The notes below the pieces were generated by a model. It made no database searches. It was not told the DNA's origin and saw only the letters and a program-made list of their open reading frames with translations. A stretch of 64,000 nucleotides of DNA from Clostridia bacterium (GTDB taxonomy: Bacteria > Bacillota > Clostridia > Monoglobales > Firm-18): assembly GCA_045660545.1 (NCBI GenBank), contig JAZREA010000026.1:12561-76560 (forward strand), read 5' to 3'. The position numbers were made by a program, and so were the translations under genes. Positions 7,319 to 61,830 of the stretch are shown here, in pieces (the first letter of the stretch is position 1; every line of letters begins with the position of its first letter).

Positions 7319-8995
7319 CTATTTTTTAGTTCTGATTTCAGTTGCCTGCTTAATCATTTCCGCCGCCGCTTCAAGCGTTGTGGCGGTTATTTGTGCCCCG
7401 CCGATTATACGCGCAAGCTCGCTCTGGCGTTGTTTGTCATCAAGCGTTTTAACGTCCGTAAAGGTGCTTTGGTTGTCCATCGACTTTTCGATTAAAAAGT
7501 GTGTGTCTGCCATAGCAGCAATCTGTGCTAAATGAGTGATGCAAAGGACTTGCTTGTTTTTAGAAATCTTGTTGATTTTTTCTGCAATCTTTTGCGCAGC
7601 TCTGCCGCTGACGCCGGTGTCAATTTCGTCAAATATAAGCGTGTCGACAGGGTCAGTGTTTGCAAAAATCGTCTTTATCGCAAGCATAATTCTTGACATC
7701 TCGCCGCCGGAAGCTATTTTGGAAAGTGGCTTTAACGGCTCACCTGCGTTTACAGAGATTAAAAACTCTACTTCGTCGCAGCCGTTGGTGTTGAAGTTGC
7801 CTTCCCTGATGTCTACTGCAAACTTAACTCTCGACATATCAAGGTCTGCAAGCTCTTTTGCTATTTTGTCGCTAAGTTCTTCGGCAGCACTGCGCCTTAG
7901 TGAGGTAAGCGTGTCGGCGAGCTTTTTGCGTGCGATTTTTGCTATATCAAGCTCTTTTTTTAGCTTTGTTATCTCCTCGTCGCTTTGTATAATAGTCTTT
8001 AATTTTTCCTCGGTTTCGTCTTTGTATGTTAAAATATCTTCGATAGAGTTGCCGTATTTTCTTTTGAGAGCGTTAATGGTACCAAGCCTGTTTTCAATCT
8101 CGTCAAGCTCGCCCTCGTTGTAGCTTATAGAGTCTTTGTAGTCGCGAATCTGGTATATAACGTCGTCTAGGTCTATTGTTATACTGTTTAACCGTCCGTA
8201 TATTTCATCCAGCTTTTCGTCGTATTTGCTGACTGATATAAGCTCGTTTGCAGCACCCGACAAAACGTCGTACGCGTTGTTGTCGCTTTCGTACAAGACA
8301 CGGTGGGCGCTATTTATAGCTTCCGAGATTTTTTCCACACTGTTTAAGAACTTTCTGCGTTCCGCAAGCTTTTCGTCTTCACCTGCTACAAGGTTTGCGG
8401 CCTCGATTTCTCTGATCTGGAAGGTAAAGAGGTCAACTTGCCGTTCTTTTTCCTGCTCGTCAAATTGCAGGGAGTCTATCTTGTCCTGAAGATTTAAAAC
8501 CAGATTGTGTTCCTCGCGGTATGCGGCAAGGTCGCTCGAAATTTTGGCGTAGTCGTTTAAAAAATGTATGTGTGACGACGGAGAGAGCAAGGATAAGTTG
8601 TCTTGCTGACCGTGAATGTTTATAAGCATTTCTGCTATTTTTCTTATGTTCGACGCTGTAGTCATAGAGCCGTTGATTTTACATACACTTTTTCCGTCCG
8701 TGTTAATATCACGGTATAAAATTACTACGTTGTCTTCGGCCTCGACCCCAAGGTCAAAAAGCCTGTTTATAACTTCCTTGTTATCTATGTAAAACATGGC
8801 TTCCACAACAGCCTTCGACTCGCCGTTTCTGATAAGCGACTTGCTTGTGCGCTCGCCCAGAACCATATTGATAGAGTCTATTATAATTGACTTGCCGGCA
8901 CCGGTTTCGCCGGTAAGGACGTTGAATCCGTGTTTGAATTCAATTTCGGCTTCGTCAATAACTGCTATGTTTTTTATGTGTAGCCTTTCAAGCAT
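7319..8995 (-). CDS. recN: DNA repair protein RecN
   Basis: 558 aa. N-terminal Walker A (LTGETGAGKS), long coiled-coil, and C-terminal SMC signature (SGGEMSRIMLA...LIFDEIDTG). Confidence 0.95.
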   Translation of the reverse strand: MLERLHIKNIAVIDEAEIEFKHGFNVLTGETGAGKSIIIDSINMVLGERTSKSLIRNGESKAVVEAMFYIDNKEVINRLFDLGVEAEDNVVILYRDINTDGKSVCKINGSMTTASNIRKIAEMLINIHGQQDNLSLLSPSSHIHFLNDYAKISSDLAAYREEHNLVLNLQDKIDSLQFDEQEKERQVDLFTFQIREIEAANLVAGEDEKLAERRKFLNSVEKISEAINSAHRVLYESDNNAYDVLSGAANELISVSKYDEKLDEIYGRLNSITIDLDDVIYQIRDYKDSISYNEGELDEIENRLGTINALKRKYGNSIEDILTYKDETEEKLKTIIQSDEEITKLKKELDIAKIARKKLADTLTSLRRSAAEELSDKIAKELADLDMSRVKFAVDIREGNFNTNGCDEVEFLISVNAGEPLKPLSKIASGGEMSRIMLAIKTIFANTDPVDTLIFDEIDTGVSGRAAQKIAEKINKISKNKQVLCITHLAQIAAMADTHFLIEKSMDNQSTFTDVKTLDDKQRQSELARIIGGAQITATTLEAAAEMIKQATEIRTKK

Positions 8996-9462: not shown

Positions 9463-10302
9463 TTATATTTCCTTTTCAAAGAATTTTTTCTTCAGCTTGT
9501 TGTAAAACGACTTTTCATCCTGTCTTATTGTGTTAAGATATCCGCCGTGTTCGATCTTGATTGTGTGAGCGCCCTCAAGCTCCGATACCATATTGCCGTC
9601 AACAGACAGCGCGCATTTGCTGTCAGCGTTGTTAATTTTAACTTCAATGTTAGCGTCCATCGGCACCACAATACTGCGAAGATGCAGATTGTGTGGGCAA
9701 ATCGGAGTAATTATAAATGCCTTTACAGACGGGTTAACAATAGGCCCGCCGGCAGACATTGAGTATGCGGTAGAACCGGAGGAGGTAGATATAATCAGCC
9801 CGTCGGCGCGGAACTTGTTCATCGACACCCCTTCAATTATAATCTCCGTGTCAATCATCTTAGGGGAAAAAGCTCTGTAAACAGTTACCTCGTTAATGCA
9901 AAGGCTGACGTCCTCGTGGTGCGTAACCTTTATAATTGGCAGCTTTTCAAGAATATATTTTCCTTCTAAAACCTTTAAAAGTCCGCTTTCCTCGTCGTGC
10001 TGTTCAAGCTCTGTTAAAAAGCCGATGTTGCCGTAGTTTATGCCTAAAACAGGCGTGTCTGTGTTGATATATTGCTTGCTGTGTGAAAGAAACGTTCCGT
10101 CCCCGCCGATTATAACCGCGAGGTCTACGTCCTTTTCTGTGGCTATGTCGACAAATTCTGCCTTAATCTTATACTGTTGCATATCTTTGCTCATAATAGG
10201 GGTTACGCCGTGTTTTGCAAGTATTTTAGCAACTTTTTTGGCGCCCTTTGCGTCCTTGTCTCGTTCTAAGTTTGTGATAACAACTGCCTTTTTCATAAGC
10301 AA
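9463..10302 (-). CDS. nadK: NAD kinase
   Basis: 279 aa with GGDGT motif (VIIGGDGTFL) and NAD-kinase C-terminal domain. Confidence 0.9.
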   Translation of the reverse strand: MLMKKAVVITNLERDKDAKGAKKVAKILAKHGVTPIMSKDMQQYKIKAEFVDIATEKDVDLAVIIGGDGTFLSHSKQYINTDTPVLGINYGNIGFLTELEQHDEESGLLKVLEGKYILEKLPIIKVTHHEDVSLCINEVTVYRAFSPKMIDTEIIIEGVSMNKFRADGLIISTSSGSTAYSMSAGGPIVNPSVKAFIITPICPHNLHLRSIVVPMDANIEVKINNADSKCALSVDGNMVSELEGAHTIKIEHGGYLNTIRQDEKSFYNKLKKKFFEKEI

Positions 10303-56266: not shown

Positions 56267-57703
56267 ATGAATTATGCAATGATTGTATATACACTTGGCT
56301 GGGTTTTGAACTTTGAGGCGGTGTGTTTTACTTTGCCGCTTATCTGTTCTTTGATATACAAAGAGTCGCTGACGCCTATGTACGCTCTTTGCGTAGTAGT
56401 CTGCCTTGCTGTTGGTCTTGTGCTGACACATAAACAACCGAAAAATAAATCTATGTATGCAAAAGAGGGGTACGTAATCGTTGCTCTTTGCTGGATTTTA
56501 ATGAGTCTGGTTGGTTCTTTGCCGTTTAGCCTTTCGGGATATATTCCAAAGTATATTGACGCACTTTTTGAGACGGTTTCCGGTTTTACAACCACCGGTG
56601 CTACAATTTTGGCGGATGTAGAGATTTTGCCGAAATCTATACTTTTCTGGCGCAGCTTTACCCATTGGGTTGGCGGTATGGGCGTTTTGGTGTTTTTGGT
56701 TGCTATTTTGCCCCTGTCGGGCGGCAGTAATATGCACCTTGTAAAGGCGGAAAGTACAGGACCCGCTGTCAGCAAGCTTGTGCCAAAAACAGGTATGAGC
56801 GCAAAGCTTTTATACGCTATGTATATTGTGCTTTCGCTTTTGGAGTTTGTGCTTTTGCTTTTTGGCGGTCTTGACGTTTTTGATTCGCTTACGCTGATGT
56901 TTGGTACGGCAGGTACGGGCGGCTTTGGAATTTTAAATTCAAGCTTTGTTGAATATTCGTCTTATGTGCAGTATGTTGTGGCGATATTTATGGTGCTGTT
57001 TGGCATAGATTTTTCCATGTACTACCTTATTCTGATACGCAAGTTCCGCCTCGCGTTTAAATCGGACGAAATCAAGACATATATTGGAATAGTAGCAGTA
57101 GCTACACTTATTATTTGCTTCAACTGCCGCTCAATTTACGATACGCTTGCGGAAGCATTTAAACACAGCTTTTTTCAGGTTGCGTCTATTATAACTACTA
57201 CCGGTTATTCGTCCGTCGACTTTGACCAATGGCCCGAGCTTTCAAAGACCATACTTGTTGGTCTGATGTTTTGCGGCGCTTGTGCCGGCAGTACAGGCGG
57301 CGGCATTAAGGTTTCAAGAATAGTTATTCTTTTAAAGAGTGTTGTAAAGGAAATAAAAATCGCCGTTCATCCTCAAAGGGTTTATAAGACAACCATGAAC
57401 GGTACCTTGGTAGAGCACGAAACAGTCAGGGCGGTCAACGTATTTTTGGTTTCGTACCTATCCATATTCGTCGTTTCTATAATTTTAGTCAGCCTTGATA
57501 ATATGGACTTTACAACCAACTTTACGGCAGTTGCGGCGACGCTTAACAACATAGGCCCCGGTCTTGCAAAGGTTGGCCCTACTTGTAATTTTGCTGCTTT
57601 TTCGCCGTTGTCAAAAATCGTTATGATTTTTGATATGTTTATTGGAAGACTCGAAGTGTTCCCGGTTTTAATTTTGCTTTCAAGGTCTACCTGGAAGAAA
57701 TAG
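56267..57703 (+). CDS. trkH: TrkH/KtrB family potassium transporter
   Basis: 478 aa, polytopic, with selectivity-filter-like TTTGA, GTGG and TTTGY segments. Confidence 0.9.
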   Translation: MNYAMIVYTLGWVLNFEAVCFTLPLICSLIYKESLTPMYALCVVVCLAVGLVLTHKQPKNKSMYAKEGYVIVALCWILMSLVGSLPFSLSGYIPKYIDALFETVSGFTTTGATILADVEILPKSILFWRSFTHWVGGMGVLVFLVAILPLSGGSNMHLVKAESTGPAVSKLVPKTGMSAKLLYAMYIVLSLLEFVLLLFGGLDVFDSLTLMFGTAGTGGFGILNSSFVEYSSYVQYVVAIFMVLFGIDFSMYYLILIRKFRLAFKSDEIKTYIGIVAVATLIICFNCRSIYDTLAEAFKHSFFQVASIITTTGYSSVDFDQWPELSKTILVGLMFCGACAGSTGGGIKVSRIVILLKSVVKEIKIAVHPQRVYKTTMNGTLVEHETVRAVNVFLVSYLSIFVVSIILVSLDNMDFTTNFTAVAATLNNIGPGLAKVGPTCNFAAFSPLSKIVMIFDMFIGRLEVFPVLILLSRSTWKK

Positions 57704-57744: not shown

Positions 57745-57915
57745 CGTATTTTTGCGCAGAAAAACCAGTATGCTTTTTTAATCAAGCCACAAAAGTCATG
57801 AAATTAGCGGGGTTTCGGTGCATAATCTTTGCCAACATTTGCGTCCGCCTTTATATTAGACTTTATTTGGTGCTAAAAAAGTGCCAAATAATTTTTAAAA
57901 AAGGAGGATTGCAAA

Positions 57916-59262
57916 ATGGCAATCAAAAACGAGTTTTTCGAAACGGAAAACAACAAAAAAGCGCAGTCACAAAACACTATGGACAATTCGGGAGGGATGA
58001 GGTATAATAAAAACATAACTGATGCCTTTTTGGCTAAGAAAGAACCTTTCGAATCTTCCTTTGTCAGCTGGTATGACAAAAACAAGGGAGCCTTAAAGTA
58101 CGCAGGGGACAGTACGAAGGAAAGCGTGGAAAAAGGCCTGAGCGAAGCGCCGACGTATATGAAGGATGCAGAGCCGGGCACTAACTTTACAGACGTGCAG
58201 ACCGCGTCGGTAAAGCGCTCACTTGCAAAAGATGCAAACGACAAAGGCCTTTATAACTCTGCGGTTATGGAAATGATAGGGCTTTTGAGTACGGAAAACA
58301 AGGACCCTTATTTGAGCCAGTCGCAACCATTGCAGACGTATATTGACGCAAAGGACAAATTTGACTTTTTGCGCAACAACTACACCACAACCAAAAACAT
58401 CGACCAAACGCCCGACGAAAATGTGCGCCAGCTCCAAAGGGGACTGAATGCAGAAGGCTACACAGACAAAATGGGCCAGCCACTGAAAGAGGACGGGGTA
58501 TTCGGAGGAAAGACCGCATACGCACTAGATACGAGTAGGGCGAATATTTCAAAGATAGGAAGTATCCCATCAGTAGTAAAAGGCAATGGACTTGACATAA
58601 AATATCCAATAACAAGCATAGAGGATTTACAACTTCAAGTGTTTAAAAACGCGCAAGTAAAAAAGACGTCGAATAACAATGCGAAGCCAGCAAGTTCCAA
58701 ACCTGAAAGCCTAAAATTTATACCAGATATAATATACGATGCGTGGAACAAGGCTGAAGATAGCATATGGAAAATCGGAGCAAAAGTACTCGATTTGTAT
58801 GGATGGCATTTATCTTCAGAACTATTGTACTTGGCAGCAAGCGGAAGTGATAACAAATACGTTGCAACCGAAGGAAGCTATGCGTCTAATTTGCTAAAAA
58901 ATGACAAAGGCTTAAATAAATTTATTAATGATGTTATTTGGGAGTATGGAACAAGTAAGGGTAATAAAAACCCAGACATTCCACAGGTTTCATATAACAT
59001 ACCACTTTCAAACGGCGATTTAGGTGCTGCATTACATAAGGTCGATCTAAATATCGAAGCCAAACAAAATCCTGACGGAACATGGACTGCAACGATAAAA
59101 GCAACTGACAATTTCAATTTCTCCGAAATTGAAAATCCCCTTAAGTATAAAAAATTAAAGGAAAAAATATTATGGCTTGCAAATGATATTGCCGTCATAG
59201 ATACTAATTGGGGATTGTTAGATAATGTACCTATCGAAATAACATTTAAAAATAATTATTAA
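57916..59262 (+). CDS. polymorphic-toxin-like protein, copy 1 (conserved N-module with PG_binding-like motif + unique C-terminal domain)
   Basis: 448 aa behind a strong AAAGGAGG RBS, with no signal peptide. Residues about 22-210 are shared with the 59818 ORF, including VRQLQRGLNAEGYTDKMGQPLKEDG.FGGKT. The C-terminal about 240 aa is unique. Confidence 0.75.
   Translation: MAIKNEFFETENNKKAQSQNTMDNSGGMRYNKNITDAFLAKKEPFESSFVSWYDKNKGALKYAGDSTKESVEKGLSEAPTYMKDAEPGTNFTDVQTASVKRSLAKDANDKGLYNSAVMEMIGLLSTENKDPYLSQSQPLQTYIDAKDKFDFLRNNYTTTKNIDQTPDENVRQLQRGLNAEGYTDKMGQPLKEDGVFGGKTAYALDTSRANISKIGSIPSVVKGNGLDIKYPITSIEDLQLQVFKNAQVKKTSNNNAKPASSKPESLKFIPDIIYDAWNKAEDSIWKIGAKVLDLYGWHLSSELLYLAASGSDNKYVATEGSYASNLLKNDKGLNKFINDVIWEYGTSKGNKNPDIPQVSYNIPLSNGDLGAALHKVDLNIEAKQNPDGTWTATIKATDNFNFSEIENPLKYKKLKEKILWLANDIAVIDTNWGLLDNVPIEITFKNNY
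57970..58545 (+). repeat. 576-bp direct repeat, copy A (5' module of toxin-like genes)
   Basis: Collinear with 59809-60384 at a constant 1839-bp offset. Includes a 71-nt perfectly identical run (58408-58478) and a 48-nt one. Confidence 0.9.
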
Positions 59263-59273
59263 GAGGTGATTAC

Positions 59274-59750
59274 ATGAATATTGTATTTAAAATTGCGTCA
59301 TGTTTGCTTTCAATAGTCTTTGTAGTTGTTACATTAATTTTAATTGTTGCTGTTTTTTTACCTACTATAAATGAAACAACCAATGATTTTAACCGTCAAT
59401 TACCGAAACATTTAGATAAAGTCGAATATGTTGATGGTGGATTTGATGATTTTACCAAATACAAAGAATACTACTATTCAAAAGAAAATATCTCGGAATT
59501 TAAAAGCAACAAATATTTTAAACAAGTTAATGAGAGCGACATAGAAACAATTTATGGTTATTTTAATAATTTTGAATATTCATTGCGCTCTTTGACATAC
59601 AAGAACGAGTACAGATTCGAAAAATCTCAAATAAAGGCAAATGATTATTTTTATATAGAATCAAAAGGCGATTCACCGTATGATAATTACGACGTTTATT
59701 ACGTAGATGTCGAAAAATGCATAATGTATTTTATACATTCAAACATATAA
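59274..59750 (+). CDS. small membrane-anchored protein (candidate immunity partner 1)
   Basis: 158 aa. GAGGTG RBS, with the start 11 nt after the upstream stop. One N-terminal TM then a Tyr/Asn/Lys-rich domain. Very AT-rich. Confidence 0.7.
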   Translation: MNIVFKIASCLLSIVFVVVTLILIVAVFLPTINETTNDFNRQLPKHLDKVEYVDGGFDDFTKYKEYYYSKENISEFKSNKYFKQVNESDIETIYGYFNNFEYSLRSLTYKNEYRFEKSQIKANDYFYIESKGDSPYDNYDVYYVDVEKCIMYFIHSNI

Positions 59751-59760
59751 CAATTACTTT

Positions 59761-59800
59761 TACCAAAAGCAAAAGGCACTCGAAAATCGAGTGCCTTTTT
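59761..59800 (+). terminator. hairpin terminator / cassette junction repeat (copy 1)
   Basis: TACCAAAAGCAAAAGGCACTCGAAAATCGAGTGCCTTTTT. Near-identical to 61577-61618. Confidence 0.75.
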
Positions 59801-59808
59801 GCATCCGC

Positions 59809-60384
59809 CAAAACACTATGGACAATTCGGGAGGGATAGGGTATAATGACAACATAGGCAATACCTTTTTGGCAGGGAAAGACCCTTTCGAAGCTTCAAT
59901 GGGAGAATGGTACAAAAAGTACAACGATTCTTTAAAGTACGCCGGGGACAGAGCGAAGAAAAGTATTGTACAGGGGCTGATGGAAGCTTCTTCATACATT
60001 AAGGATGCTTCCCCCGACACTAACTTTACGGACGTACAGACAGCGTCGGTAAAGCGAAGCCTTGCAAAAGACGCAAACGACAAAGGCCTTTATAACTCTG
60101 CGGTTATGGAAATGATAGGGCATTTAAGTAGGGAGAACAAAGAGCCTTATTTAAAACAAGCTAAGCCATTACAGACGTACATTGACGCGAAAGACAACTT
60201 CGACTTTAATCACAACAACTACACCACAACCCAAAACATAGACCAGACGCCCGACGAAAATGTGCGCCAGCTCCAAAGGGGACTGAATGCAGAAGGCTAC
60301 ACAGACAAAATGGGCCAACCGCTGAAAGAGGACGGAATATTAGGAGGAAAGACCTTATACGCGTATGATACGAGTAGGGCGAAT
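59809..60384 (+). repeat. 576-bp direct repeat, copy B
   Basis: See 57970-58545. Confidence 0.9.
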
Positions 60385-61182
60385 GTACAAACAACTTTGC
60401 AATCGCAATTGTTCAAAAACACCCTGTCCGCAAGCGAGCCCGTTGCCAAAATCACAAATAATTTGAATAATACTGTAAACCAAATTAAAACAAAGATAAA
60501 AACTGTTTTTGATAAATATATCCCGTATTATTCCGAAGAAAGTGATAATATTAAGTTGTCCGACAACGGCAAGCTATCAGAAAACGACAAAAAATACAAC
60601 AAAATCAAACAAACTTTGTTGAAATGCCTGAGTGCCAATTGGTACGGAACCGCTTACAACAAAGAATTTCAAGATTATATTCACGAACAGGCTAATAGAT
60701 TAAGAGAATACGACGATAACTCATTTGAAAAAGTAGTATTACTAAATAAATCGACCGGGGCTAGTAACCTGGGACATAACGCCGTTATGCTTATTAATAA
60801 AGACAACGAAGGTCTAATTTTTAGTTTTTATTCAACCTCTTCTAATTTTATTAAATCCGTGCGAACCCAAGCAGAAGTTAGATTTGGAGTGTTAAATTCT
60901 GAAGAAGTTAATAATTTATTGTATAAAAATAACAAGAACGTTCTCTTTTTTACTGCCAGTGATAATTCTATAGTTAGAGAAACATATGATAACTTTAAAA
61001 CATACAATCTAAACAGCACAGGTTACAATATGTACAATGCTGCTGTTGCTCTATACGACTGCCCGAGTTACTATTCTTTGGTTTCGAGGCATTGTGACAT
61101 TATTGCAGTAGAATTACTAAAAGAAGGCGGTATAGATATTAACAGATGGGTAATACCAAACTGGACGTACGAAAATAACTAG
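59818..61182 (+). CDS. polymorphic-toxin-like protein, copy 2 (same N-module, different C-terminal domain; possibly orphan/silent)
   Basis: The open frame begins exactly at the homology edge (MDNSGG). There is no SD before ATG 59818, and the GTG at 59791 lies inside the terminator stem. The C-terminal domain has GHNAVML (His) ... YSLVSRHCDIIAVELL (Cys). Confidence 0.6.
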   Translation: MDNSGGIGYNDNIGNTFLAGKDPFEASMGEWYKKYNDSLKYAGDRAKKSIVQGLMEASSYIKDASPDTNFTDVQTASVKRSLAKDANDKGLYNSAVMEMIGHLSRENKEPYLKQAKPLQTYIDAKDNFDFNHNNYTTTQNIDQTPDENVRQLQRGLNAEGYTDKMGQPLKEDGILGGKTLYAYDTSRANVQTTLQSQLFKNTLSASEPVAKITNNLNNTVNQIKTKIKTVFDKYIPYYSEESDNIKLSDNGKLSENDKKYNKIKQTLLKCLSANWYGTAYNKEFQDYIHEQANRLREYDDNSFEKVVLLNKSTGASNLGHNAVMLINKDNEGLIFSFYSTSSNFIKSVRTQAEVRFGVLNSEEVNNLLYKNNKNVLFFTASDNSIVRETYDNFKTYNLNSTGYNMYNAAVALYDCPSYYSLVSRHCDIIAVELLKEGGIDINRWVIPNWTYENN

Positions 61183-61215
61183 TTTTAAAAATACAATGAT
61201 AAAGGAGAATATGAT

Positions 61216-61554
61216 ATGTCAAAAAAAGCATCGAGAATCCTATTTTATCTTATCCATTGCGTAATAGCTTTTGTTGCAGGAACTACCATTATACATATGT
61301 ATTTCGAAAAGTTTGTTAACACAAATAATTCATATCTATATTTCGTATTAGAATACGCTTTTTTATGTTTTTGCGTTATCAATTTTTTCGTTATATTTTT
61401 CTCTTATAGATTATTGAAACTCGAAAAAGGGAAGAAATTCTATCCCATTCTCTTTATTAACTACATAATTGCAAATGTATGTTCTTATTTGACTTTTTAT
61501 TTTGCAATTTATGTATTTATTTTTATTAGGTTGATGATATATGGTCTTTACTGA
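61216..61554 (+). CDS. small polytopic membrane protein (candidate immunity partner 2)
   Basis: 112 aa, 3-4 TM, AAAGGAG RBS, extremely AT-rich. Confidence 0.7.
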   Translation: MSKKASRILFYLIHCVIAFVAGTTIIHMYFEKFVNTNNSYLYFVLEYAFLCFCVINFFVIFFSYRLLKLEKGKKFYPILFINYIIANVCSYLTFYFAIYVFIFIRLMIYGLY

Positions 61555-61576
61555 TTAAATAACGGACATATCCCTA

Positions 61577-61655
61577 TACCAAAATCAAAAGGCACCCAGT
61601 TGATCGAGTGCCTTTTTTGTATTACAAAAAGGATGTGGACAATTCGGTAGGGGTA
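61577..61655 (+). repeat. third cassette junction: hairpin repeat plus about 20-nt stub of the 5' module
   Basis: TACCAAAATCAAAAGGCACCCAGTTGATCGAGTGCCTTTTTT, then after 19 nt GGACAATTCGGTAGGGG (compare GGACAATTCGGGAGGG at 59820). Homology ends there. Confidence 0.65.
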
Positions 61656-61753
61656 ATTTTGCGTACGAGACTGTCATTCACTACCGCTCCTTCGAATCCC
61701 TCGTCAAATAAACTGCAACAAAAAAGAACACCCTGACGGATGTCCTTTTTTGT

Positions 61754-61830
61754 TGGCGCGCCTGAAGGGATTCGAACCCCTGACCTAACGGTTCGTAGCC
61801 GTTCACTCTATCCAGCTGAGCTACAGGCGC
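61754..61830 (-). tRNA. tRNA-Arg (anticodon ACG)
   Basis: Reverse complement is GCGCCTGTAGCTCAGCTGGATAGAGTGAACGGCTACGAACCGTTAGGTCAGGGGTTCGAATCCCTTCAGGCGCGCCA. Cloverleaf folds and CCA is encoded. Confidence 0.92.

Follow-up and report, generated by a model that had tools for sequence, protein, structure and literature searches.

A two-cassette toxin/immunity array in a Clostridia genome, with a probable leaderless spare cassette and a putative embedded promoter

Why would a bacterium keep, directly behind a toxin gene that is equipped for expression, a second complete toxin gene that appears to lack the signals needed to translate it? The question is raised by a locus in a stretch of 64,000 nucleotides (the window) from the genome of an uncultured gut Clostridia bacterium (GenBank assembly GCA_045660545.1, contig JAZREA010000026.1, positions 12,561 to 76,560 of the forward strand). 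Two similar units lie between trkH (56267-57703) and a tRNA-Arg gene (61754-61830, minus strand), and in both of them the order is the same: a constant module, a variable toxin C-terminus, a gene for a small membrane protein and an element made of a hairpin and a run of T. On balance we think it probable that this is a two-cassette toxin/immunity array in which cassette 2 is a leaderless spare that carries a promoter-like motif, P2, and could be exchanged into the expressed site.

Two cassettes on a shared constant module

The features of the two cassettes are given below (CT, C-terminal toxin domain; SD, Shine-Dalgarno sequence; ORF, open reading frame).

57829..57857, plus strand: P1, a promoter-like site (TTGCCA-17-TATATT) found by promoter scan upstream of gene A
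57863..57891, plus strand: terminator-like hairpin with T-run in the 5' untranslated region, between P1 and the ribosome-binding site (-12.7 kcal/mol, z = -2.6)
57900..57907, plus strand: SD of gene A, AAAGGAGG (anti-SD duplex energy -11.8 kcal/mol)
57916..59262, plus strand: gene A, an ORF of 448 amino acids
57916-57978, plus strand: leader of gene A, 21 codons that are extra relative to copy 2
57979-58548, plus strand: constant module of gene A, a helical domain with a PG_binding_1-like end
about 58680 to 59259, plus strand: putative toxin domain CT-A of gene A, after a disordered linker, with weak fold matches to the colicin M family
59274..59750, plus strand: imm-A, 158 amino acids, membrane-anchored at the N-terminus, the candidate for CT-A immunity (SD -7.1 kcal/mol)
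59761..59800, plus strand: J1, intrinsic-terminator hairpin (stem 59771-59799) with T-run (-22.4 kcal/mol, z = -7.8)
59809..59817, plus strand: leader-end remnant AAAACACT, kept just before copy 2
59818..61182, plus strand: gene B, 454 amino acids, leaderless, starting at ATG 59818 without an SD
59818-60387, plus strand: module of gene B, kept whole and followed by a linker and CT-B
about 60550 to 61179, plus strand: domain CT-B of gene B, with an invariant GHNAVM...C-D motif
61216..61554, plus strand: imm-B, a polytopic membrane protein of 112 amino acids, candidate immunity protein for CT-B (SD -8.8 kcal/mol)
61577..61618, plus strand: J2, the second junction copy, its hairpin partly decayed in the left arm (-11.6 kcal/mol)

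Residues 22-211 of gene A are 71% identical to residues 1-190 of gene B, and at the DNA level 57979-58548 and 59818-60387 align without gaps over 570 nt at 81% identity. The two copies are offset by 1839 nt. Three copies of the module start, TGGACAATTCGGNAGGG, lie in the 64 kb (57980, 59819 and 61636), with start-to-start spacings of 1839 and 1817 nt. An earlier reading of this DNA, made from the letters alone (the sequence-only reading), had proposed a 576-bp repeat as the substrate for recombination; the shared repeat is real, but it is an imperfect one of 570 nt at only 81% identity with short identical tracts, the longest being 71, 49 and 20 nt. The synonymous divergence (Ks) between the window modules is about 0.53, with a ratio of non-synonymous to synonymous divergence (Ka/Ks) of 0.29, and the module of gene B is therefore not a recent duplicate of copy 1. 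In Pfam and NCBIfam searches with the module proteins the sole match was a weak PG_binding_1-like stretch at the module end, and NCBIfam and PHROGs scans of the four window proteins were uninformative. AlphaFold models (predicted local distance difference test score 74-78) consist of a disordered N-terminus, a helical module ending in the peptidoglycan-binding-like unit, a disordered linker and a folded C-terminal domain.

The family defined by this locus is small, and its constant module is unannotated, Pfam having no model for it. A search of 5.8 billion proteins returned 87 relatives, and 58 cluster representatives were found at E < 1e-10 among 1.84 billion; the relatives come from metagenome-assembled genomes (MAGs) of uncultured Clostridia and from metagenome contigs. 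A scan of genome contigs found the module in one species genome only, at four loci. It was not found in a scan of JGI metagenomes, in a scan of IMG/VR or by tblastn of the INPHARED phages, and its absence from the phage scans suggests that it is not a common phage protein.

In its homologues the module is joined to at least five types of C-terminus (Ntox44, SLT, DUF6973, CT-A-type and CT-B-type). CT-A also ends proteins with an RHS core/YD-shell (P0033, P0050 and P0070) and stands behind a zinc-ribbon-like prefix in P0017, P0045 and P0053; CT-B was seen with the constant module and with no other scaffold. The small downstream genes co-vary with the C-terminus, homologues of imm-B (60-66% identity) lying 3' of CT-B-type toxins or their remnants in the related loci L004 and L009, and homologues of imm-A 3' of the CT-A-type toxin in L001. 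A module joined to many C-termini, the presence of CT-A on RHS proteins and the co-variation of the small genes together argue that the locus is a polymorphic toxin/immunity array, with toxicity of the C-termini and its neutralisation by the small proteins as predictions.

Two further observations were made on the family. A Cys-rich prefix, MENRCQRCNR..DPNA.YGWRCAEILG, takes the place of the leader in P0017, P0045, P0053 and P0130; it stands directly before CT-A, or in P0130 before part of the constant module, and may be an alternative N-terminal trafficking signal. In L001 (11324-12309) two tandem, diverged imm-A-like genes lie behind a single CT-A-type toxin, an immunity-gene duplication of the kind described for type VII secretion (T7SS) loci.

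Start signals and the embedded promoter-like motif

The strong ribosome-binding site and the 21 additional N-terminal codons that the sequence-only reading had ascribed to copy 1 are both present. Upstream of them, TTGCCAA is invariant in the non-coding upstream regions of eight first-cassette loci and is not present upstream of copy 2. The hairpin between P1 and the ribosome-binding site may be an attenuator of toxin expression; L015 has a hairpin at the same place (about 620-650) with changed stem bases. A separate feature of the leaders is an E-R-R motif that is always encoded by GAA AGG AGG in L004, L009, L012, L015 and L017 (for example L004:10040-10048). This is a strong SD-like sequence inside an ORF, with no start codon at a suitable distance, and the window leader is without the motif.

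Pairing of the 21 nt before the ATG of gene B with the anti-SD was computed at +1.9 kcal/mol, while eight neighbouring genes range from -5.8 to -11.8 kcal/mol, and the J1 terminator, a perfect 13-bp stem followed by UUUUU, ends 19 nt upstream. This bears out the earlier view of copy 2 as a gene without an SD directly behind a terminator. Copy 2 had also been said to open exactly at the edge of homology, which is not the case, since homology begins 9-10 nt upstream of the ATG with the last codons of the leader (CAAAACACT). The term promoterless holds for the missing P1 region but is doubtful beyond it, as the best promoter-like match lies at the first codons of the module itself. Two other routes to a gene B product were considered: translation from an in-frame GTG at 59791 was rejected, this codon lying inside the terminator stem with a weak SD, and leaderless-mRNA translation of downstream copies was dropped because neither the window nor L004 has a -10-like hexamer at the right distance before the RTG (R, purine).

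The junction element recurs at both places where it had been described, with a module start behind each copy. The sequence TACCAAAANCAAAAGGCAC occurs exactly twice in the 64 kb (59761 and 61577; 0.06 expected), which speaks against a generic genome-wide hairpin repeat, and both copies continue into ATCGAGTGCCTTTTT (family D10).

A leaderless boundary of this kind was found in relatives as well. In L004, L007 and L013 the downstream copies are preceded by a terminator, a spacer and about 9 nt of leader end (AAAAATACT or similar), then RTG GAC AAT follows without an SD. Its recurrence in three diverged loci argues for a conserved architecture and not an accident. The hairpins before the downstream copies differ in sequence between loci. 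Terminators precede only those cassettes that have a complete module and keep the P2 motif, whereas orphans with deep truncations lie right against the preceding immunity gene, without an intervening terminator. In L004 a second toxin gene begins in mid-module and overlaps the stop codon of the immunity gene before it. An imm-A-like gene in L007 carries a fused module fragment at its 3' end, and L009 has a truncated Ntox44 orphan and two small remnants; in one of these the final 20 residues of a CT-B domain stand behind a module fragment, and an imm-B homologue comes next. The representative proteins start at many positions in the module. Such truncated orphans and decayed remnants (L004, L007 and L009) are what would be expected if copy 2 were an orphan cassette of the cdiA or rhs type, as the sequence-only reading had it; copy 2 itself agrees with that comparison in its downstream homology and in lacking SD, leader and P1, but departs from it in keeping the whole module, only 21 codons being missing. 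A related side observation concerns L008 (8004-8550), in the same MAG as L004, where a family locus beside the gene for a sodium:alanine symporter has decayed, with a stop codon and a frameshift in it; the syntenic locus L013 is intact save for an in-frame stop in its leader.

The promoter-like match within the module, P2, is present in both cassettes.

57980..58008, plus strand: P2 of copy 1, TGGACA-17-TATAAT, in the codons M/V-D-N ... Y-N (11/12 match)
59819..59847, plus strand: P2 of copy 2, TGGACA-17-TATAAT (11/12 match, 17-nt spacer)

P2 is the top promoter-like match in the window, in L004 and in L009. The pattern T(G/A)GACA-N17-TATAAT was found within the first nine codons in all 15 of the modules with available DNA, which span 41-87% amino acid identity. 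Among 80 conserved degenerate codon columns, four use a single codon throughout, and three of these four are the hexamer codons GAC, TAT and AAT (Fisher p = 5e-5); a serine codon within the spacer of P2 varies freely. The segment is predicted to be disordered in the AlphaFold models. This invariance at synonymous sites suggests that a purely peptide-level explanation is insufficient, and we infer that P2 is probably an embedded sigma-70-type promoter which keeps the immunity gene of its cassette transcribed. Transcripts from P2 would begin just inside the ORF, so that they could not encode the full toxin and would carry the immunity gene with its own strong ribosome-binding site. Such a promoter would account for three things: the terminators that insulate cassettes with a complete module, the conservation of the 5' boundary of these cassettes, and the means by which a cell could be immune to a spare toxin; because it lies in the constant module, it would serve whichever CT/immunity pair was swapped in.

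Proposed exchange between cassettes and the competing explanations

Traces of recombination between modules were seen in P0003, a protein of a near relative. Its leader is identical to that of gene A at 20 of 21 residues, and behind this copy-1-type leader come 20 informative residues in a row that are of copy-2 type, a block of copy-1 type and finally a mixture. The C-terminus of P0003 is a different allele of the CT-B family, with 61% identity. P0091, recorded on a contig of the same length as that of P0003, is a decayed orthologue of gene B, 158 amino acids long after an internal deletion and 94% identical to the CT-B of the window. Between the two window modules, an identical run of at least 71 nt arose with a frequency of 5e-5 in 20,000 permutations that preserved codon position. 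A comparison of module codons gave no sign of family-wide synonymous constraint in the 71- and 49-nt identical regions, and gene conversion is thus the likely cause of these runs. Recombination between module copies is plausible and appears to have left traces, and copy 2 could presumably be swapped into the expressed position.

A further trace may be present at the right end of the array.

61635..61655, plus strand: stub GTGGACAATTCGGTAGGGGTA, a module start that has neither a -10 hexamer nor an ORF

Hairpin, spacer and 20 nt of module start make the third junction (61566-61655) a duplicate of junction 2. That about 20 nt of the module are kept here had been noticed before and agrees with 61635-61655, after which comes a tRNA-Arg flank that is also found in a related genome. 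At each position the stub agrees with the module or with the tRNA flank of the L001 type. With a -35 hexamer alone, and lacking both the -10 hexamer and an ORF, it is presumably inert. Its bases fit the loss of a third cassette by a microhomology join, or an insertion of the array at this point.

We propose that these elements work together in the following way. Cassette 1 alone has P1, a strong ribosome-binding site and the 21-codon leader, and toxin A would for this reason be the only toxin made at full length. Cassette 2, behind a strong terminator and with no SD, would leave the toxin B ORF untranslated, while transcription from its P2 would set in a little way into the ORF and continue across CT-B, so that imm-B would be expressed through its own ribosome-binding site. 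The cell would thereby stay immune to toxin B without deploying it. RecA-type recombination or gene conversion between the modules would place CT-B and imm-B behind P1, the ribosome-binding site and the leader; with a simple crossover, 1839 bp would be lost. The third junction would be the remainder of one more module that disappeared through recombination with the tRNA flank. Promoter activity, the silence of toxin B, the immunity function, the toxin activities, the swap and the origin of the third junction are all inferred. In this design there is one expression site, each spare is insulated by a terminator, and a codon-embedded promoter would keep immunity on and the toxin off. If correct, it would explain how a reserve of weapons can be held without self-harm or loss of protection, and P2 would clearly exemplify a transcription signal that constrains synonymous sites within a coding sequence.

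Several observations weigh against this proposal. The ORF of gene B is intact over 1365 nt and the Ka/Ks of the modules is low enough to be unexpected for long-silent DNA, unless that DNA is regularly exchanged or converted. In three loci the leader has in-frame stops and the start codon of the module is kept: the L001 leader (9911-10003) contains TAA and TGA, and those of L012 and L013 (both 7846-7946), which are different loci with different toxin C-termini, share the same TAG at codon 7. This suggests that the leader may be dispensable; such alleles could be inactivated, or the leaderless product could be the normal one. With regard to P2, D-x6-Y-N is conserved at the protein level without indels in members down to about 37% identity, and a peptide motif could be responsible for some of this conservation. 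In front of GAC the codon is invariably GTG, ATG or ATA, and position 2 of the -35 hexamer is always a purine and never the consensus T; a conserved start codon fits this purine as well as or better than selection for promoter strength. The mosaic of P0003 is known from protein sequence alone, and 81% identity makes homologous recombination inefficient. Finally, Pfam was run on eight flanking ORFs, covering about 7 kb upstream and about 2 kb downstream of the array, and no secretion genes were found in this range, where the flanks are housekeeping genes.

The intact reading frame of 454 codons, the stops in the leaders and the possible start codon before GAC in 15 of 15 modules could also be read as signs that gene B is an independently expressed paralogue translated from an RTG (ATG 59818), the leader being an optional extension or a regulatory upstream ORF; the gene caller of the protein collection also starts gene B at this ATG (P0004). 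We regard this as unlikely. An SD is present at every neighbouring gene and missing at gene B, and the four downstream copies, in four loci, are all without it; the strong terminator lies close upstream, the sole good promoter-like site would start transcripts downstream of the ATG, and in a sister genome the orthologue has decayed to the 158-residue internal-deletion remnant described above.

It is less likely still that gene B is a decaying tandem duplicate, a relic of cassette turnover with no role as a reserve, in which the motif at the module start is purely a peptide signal. Decay has occurred around it, J2 being degraded, the third copy reduced to 20 nt and many truncated or internally deleted remnants being present in relatives, and the conservation of D-x6-Y-N at the protein level would suit a peptide signal, yet gene B has acquired no stops or frameshifts along its length despite a module Ks of about 0.5. 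Only the two hexamers show synonymous invariance, diverged loci repeat this layout of boundary and terminator, and P0003 indicates that sequence of copy-2 type did reach the expressed position. Integron-like site-specific cassettes, with the hairpin and a core of about 20 nt (TGGACAATTCGG) as the recombination site, would suit the three cores around two cassettes, the hairpin at each cassette 3' end and the conserved right boundary, but are most improbable because no recombinase was among the Pfam matches for the eight flanking ORFs, the hairpins are canonical intrinsic terminators that differ in sequence between loci and the breakpoints of P0003 lie within the module and not at the core, 570 nt of homology being in any case enough for RecA-dependent exchange.

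Known systems, delivery and the borders of the array

Our preferred reading, a spare cassette held ready for exchange, has parallels elsewhere. Orphan cdiA-CT/cdiI and rhs-CT/rhsI pairs reportedly lie downstream of full-length cdiA and rhs genes in Proteobacteria. As in these, the downstream CT/immunity pair of the window shares homology with the expressed gene, has no translation-initiation signals and could be fused to the expressed 5' gene by homologous recombination, and truncated remnants lie beyond it. Unlike them, the window has a constant region of about 190 amino acids that is kept entirely in the spare, the 21-codon leader alone being lost, and the spare has a terminator before it and a promoter-like motif at the module start. 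The host is a Gram-positive member of the Clostridia and there is no CDI (contact-dependent inhibition) domain, type VI secretion system (T6SS) domain or other known delivery domain. The idea of a recombination reserve is established biology; the embedded promoter and the question of delivery are the specific additions made here. To our knowledge, orphan toxin/immunity cassettes are well described in the CDI, Rhs and T6SS systems of Proteobacteria and much less so in strictly anaerobic gut Clostridia.

Immunity genes with promoters inside the toxin gene are known from colicin operons and from T6SS effector/immunity pairs of Vibrio cholerae. There, as would be the case with P2, the immunity gene is transcribed apart from the regulated promoter of the toxin. 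P2 differs in its place in the constant 5' module, about 1.3 kb before the immunity gene, and its activity would be read from conservation only.

A possible target of CT-A was sought through structure. In a Foldseek comparison the best PDB matches of the gene A model were to the colicin M family and to a T6SS effector C-terminal domain (probability 0.85-0.90, E 0.02-0.07, TM-score at most 0.3). Against PDB sequences, profiles of CT-A and CT-B had chance matches only. The weak though consistent fold matches to colicin M-type proteins, which are bacteriocins that degrade lipid II, would fit a cell-envelope target and a membrane-anchored immunity protein; imm-A is anchored in the membrane, as expected of immunity acting at the outer face, and the module has a peptidoglycan-binding-like domain. 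CT-A has no match at the sequence level, and its alignment has no visible counterpart of the His-Arg (HR) pair that we take to be catalytic in colicin M. A colicin M-like toxin with a cell-envelope target is thus a weak lead from modelling. CT-B has invariant His and Cys residues and no recognisable fold in structure comparison or in the profile search of PDB sequences. For BtpeA, the paper that was found gives no activity. As an observation apart from this, the CT-A of the window has Asn where its relatives have a near-invariant Asp (TDNFNF here, TDxFDF in relatives; 59110-59130, residues about 399-405), and the expressed toxin A may be attenuated by this change.

Polymorphic toxins and tandem immunity arrays of the T7SS, such as EsaD/EsaG and TspA/TsaI, have been described in Firmicutes (PMC9484751). 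The window shares with these toxins a Firmicutes host, variable C-termini, tandem paralogues and, presumably, turnover by homologous recombination. It differs in that its proteins have no LXG, WXG or other T7SS marker, in that no T7SS genes lie in the flanks covered above, and in that the whole toxin-plus-immunity cassette is repeated and not the immunity gene alone.

In the toxin proteins neither a signal peptide nor a known trafficking domain is evident (Pfam, NCBIfam). A possible route of delivery is suggested by L009 (2605-7969; also L010 and L011), where a compact run of phage-type structural genes lies directly upstream of a full-length family toxin on the same strand, with a gap of 31 nt. 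The run encodes a possible scaffold, a major head protein (phrog_267, 1.8e-35), a small tail-like protein, a protein of 603 residues that resembles an internal-virion protein in its C-terminus (phrog_511, 4.6e-32) and a 289-residue coiled-coil protein. No portal or terminase gene was present in the 8 kb read at L009, and phage structural genes were not found at other family loci, being limited to the L009-L011 relative. From this gene order the family toxins may be cargo of a phage-derived particle. A bolder version, to which we give little credence, is that the first codons of each module are a promoter and the cassettes, silent or not, autonomous units of immunity transcription, each set off by its terminator, with the leader as a packaging or export signal and the arrays as libraries of particle cargo. 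Were it true, toxin production would hang on a single leader and ribosome-binding site at the head of the array, and the delivery would be of a particle-based kind not yet described for polymorphic toxins of Clostridia.

The array is flanked on one side by genes for GFO/IDH oxidoreductases, a HAD hydrolase, TrkA and TrkH, and on the other by tRNA-Arg followed by NifS-like and ThiI genes. The right border has two further features.

61657..61702, plus strand: conserved sequence flanking tRNA-Arg, also in L001
61754..61830, minus strand: tRNA-Arg(ACG), right boundary of the island; the L001 toxin locus has the same flank

The match to the right flank of L001 extends over the tRNA-Arg gene, the NifS-like gene and then ThiI. 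An Rfam scan gave the tRNA alone above the gathering score, and the element in the tRNA flank was dropped as a candidate structured RNA, its folding z-scores being about 0 to -1.4. No second copy of the tRNA 3' end, as an att site at the left border of the island, was found in the window. In L001 (12393-12700) a unit of about 135 nt is repeated beside tRNA-Arg; within the unit are a terminator and the final ~20 nt of the tRNA-Arg gene. Part of this unit (CTGTCATTCAYTACCGCTCCTTCGAATCCC), with no significant predicted RNA structure, is kept in the window at 61657-61702. The repetition of the unit in L001 suggests repeated integration at tRNA-Arg.

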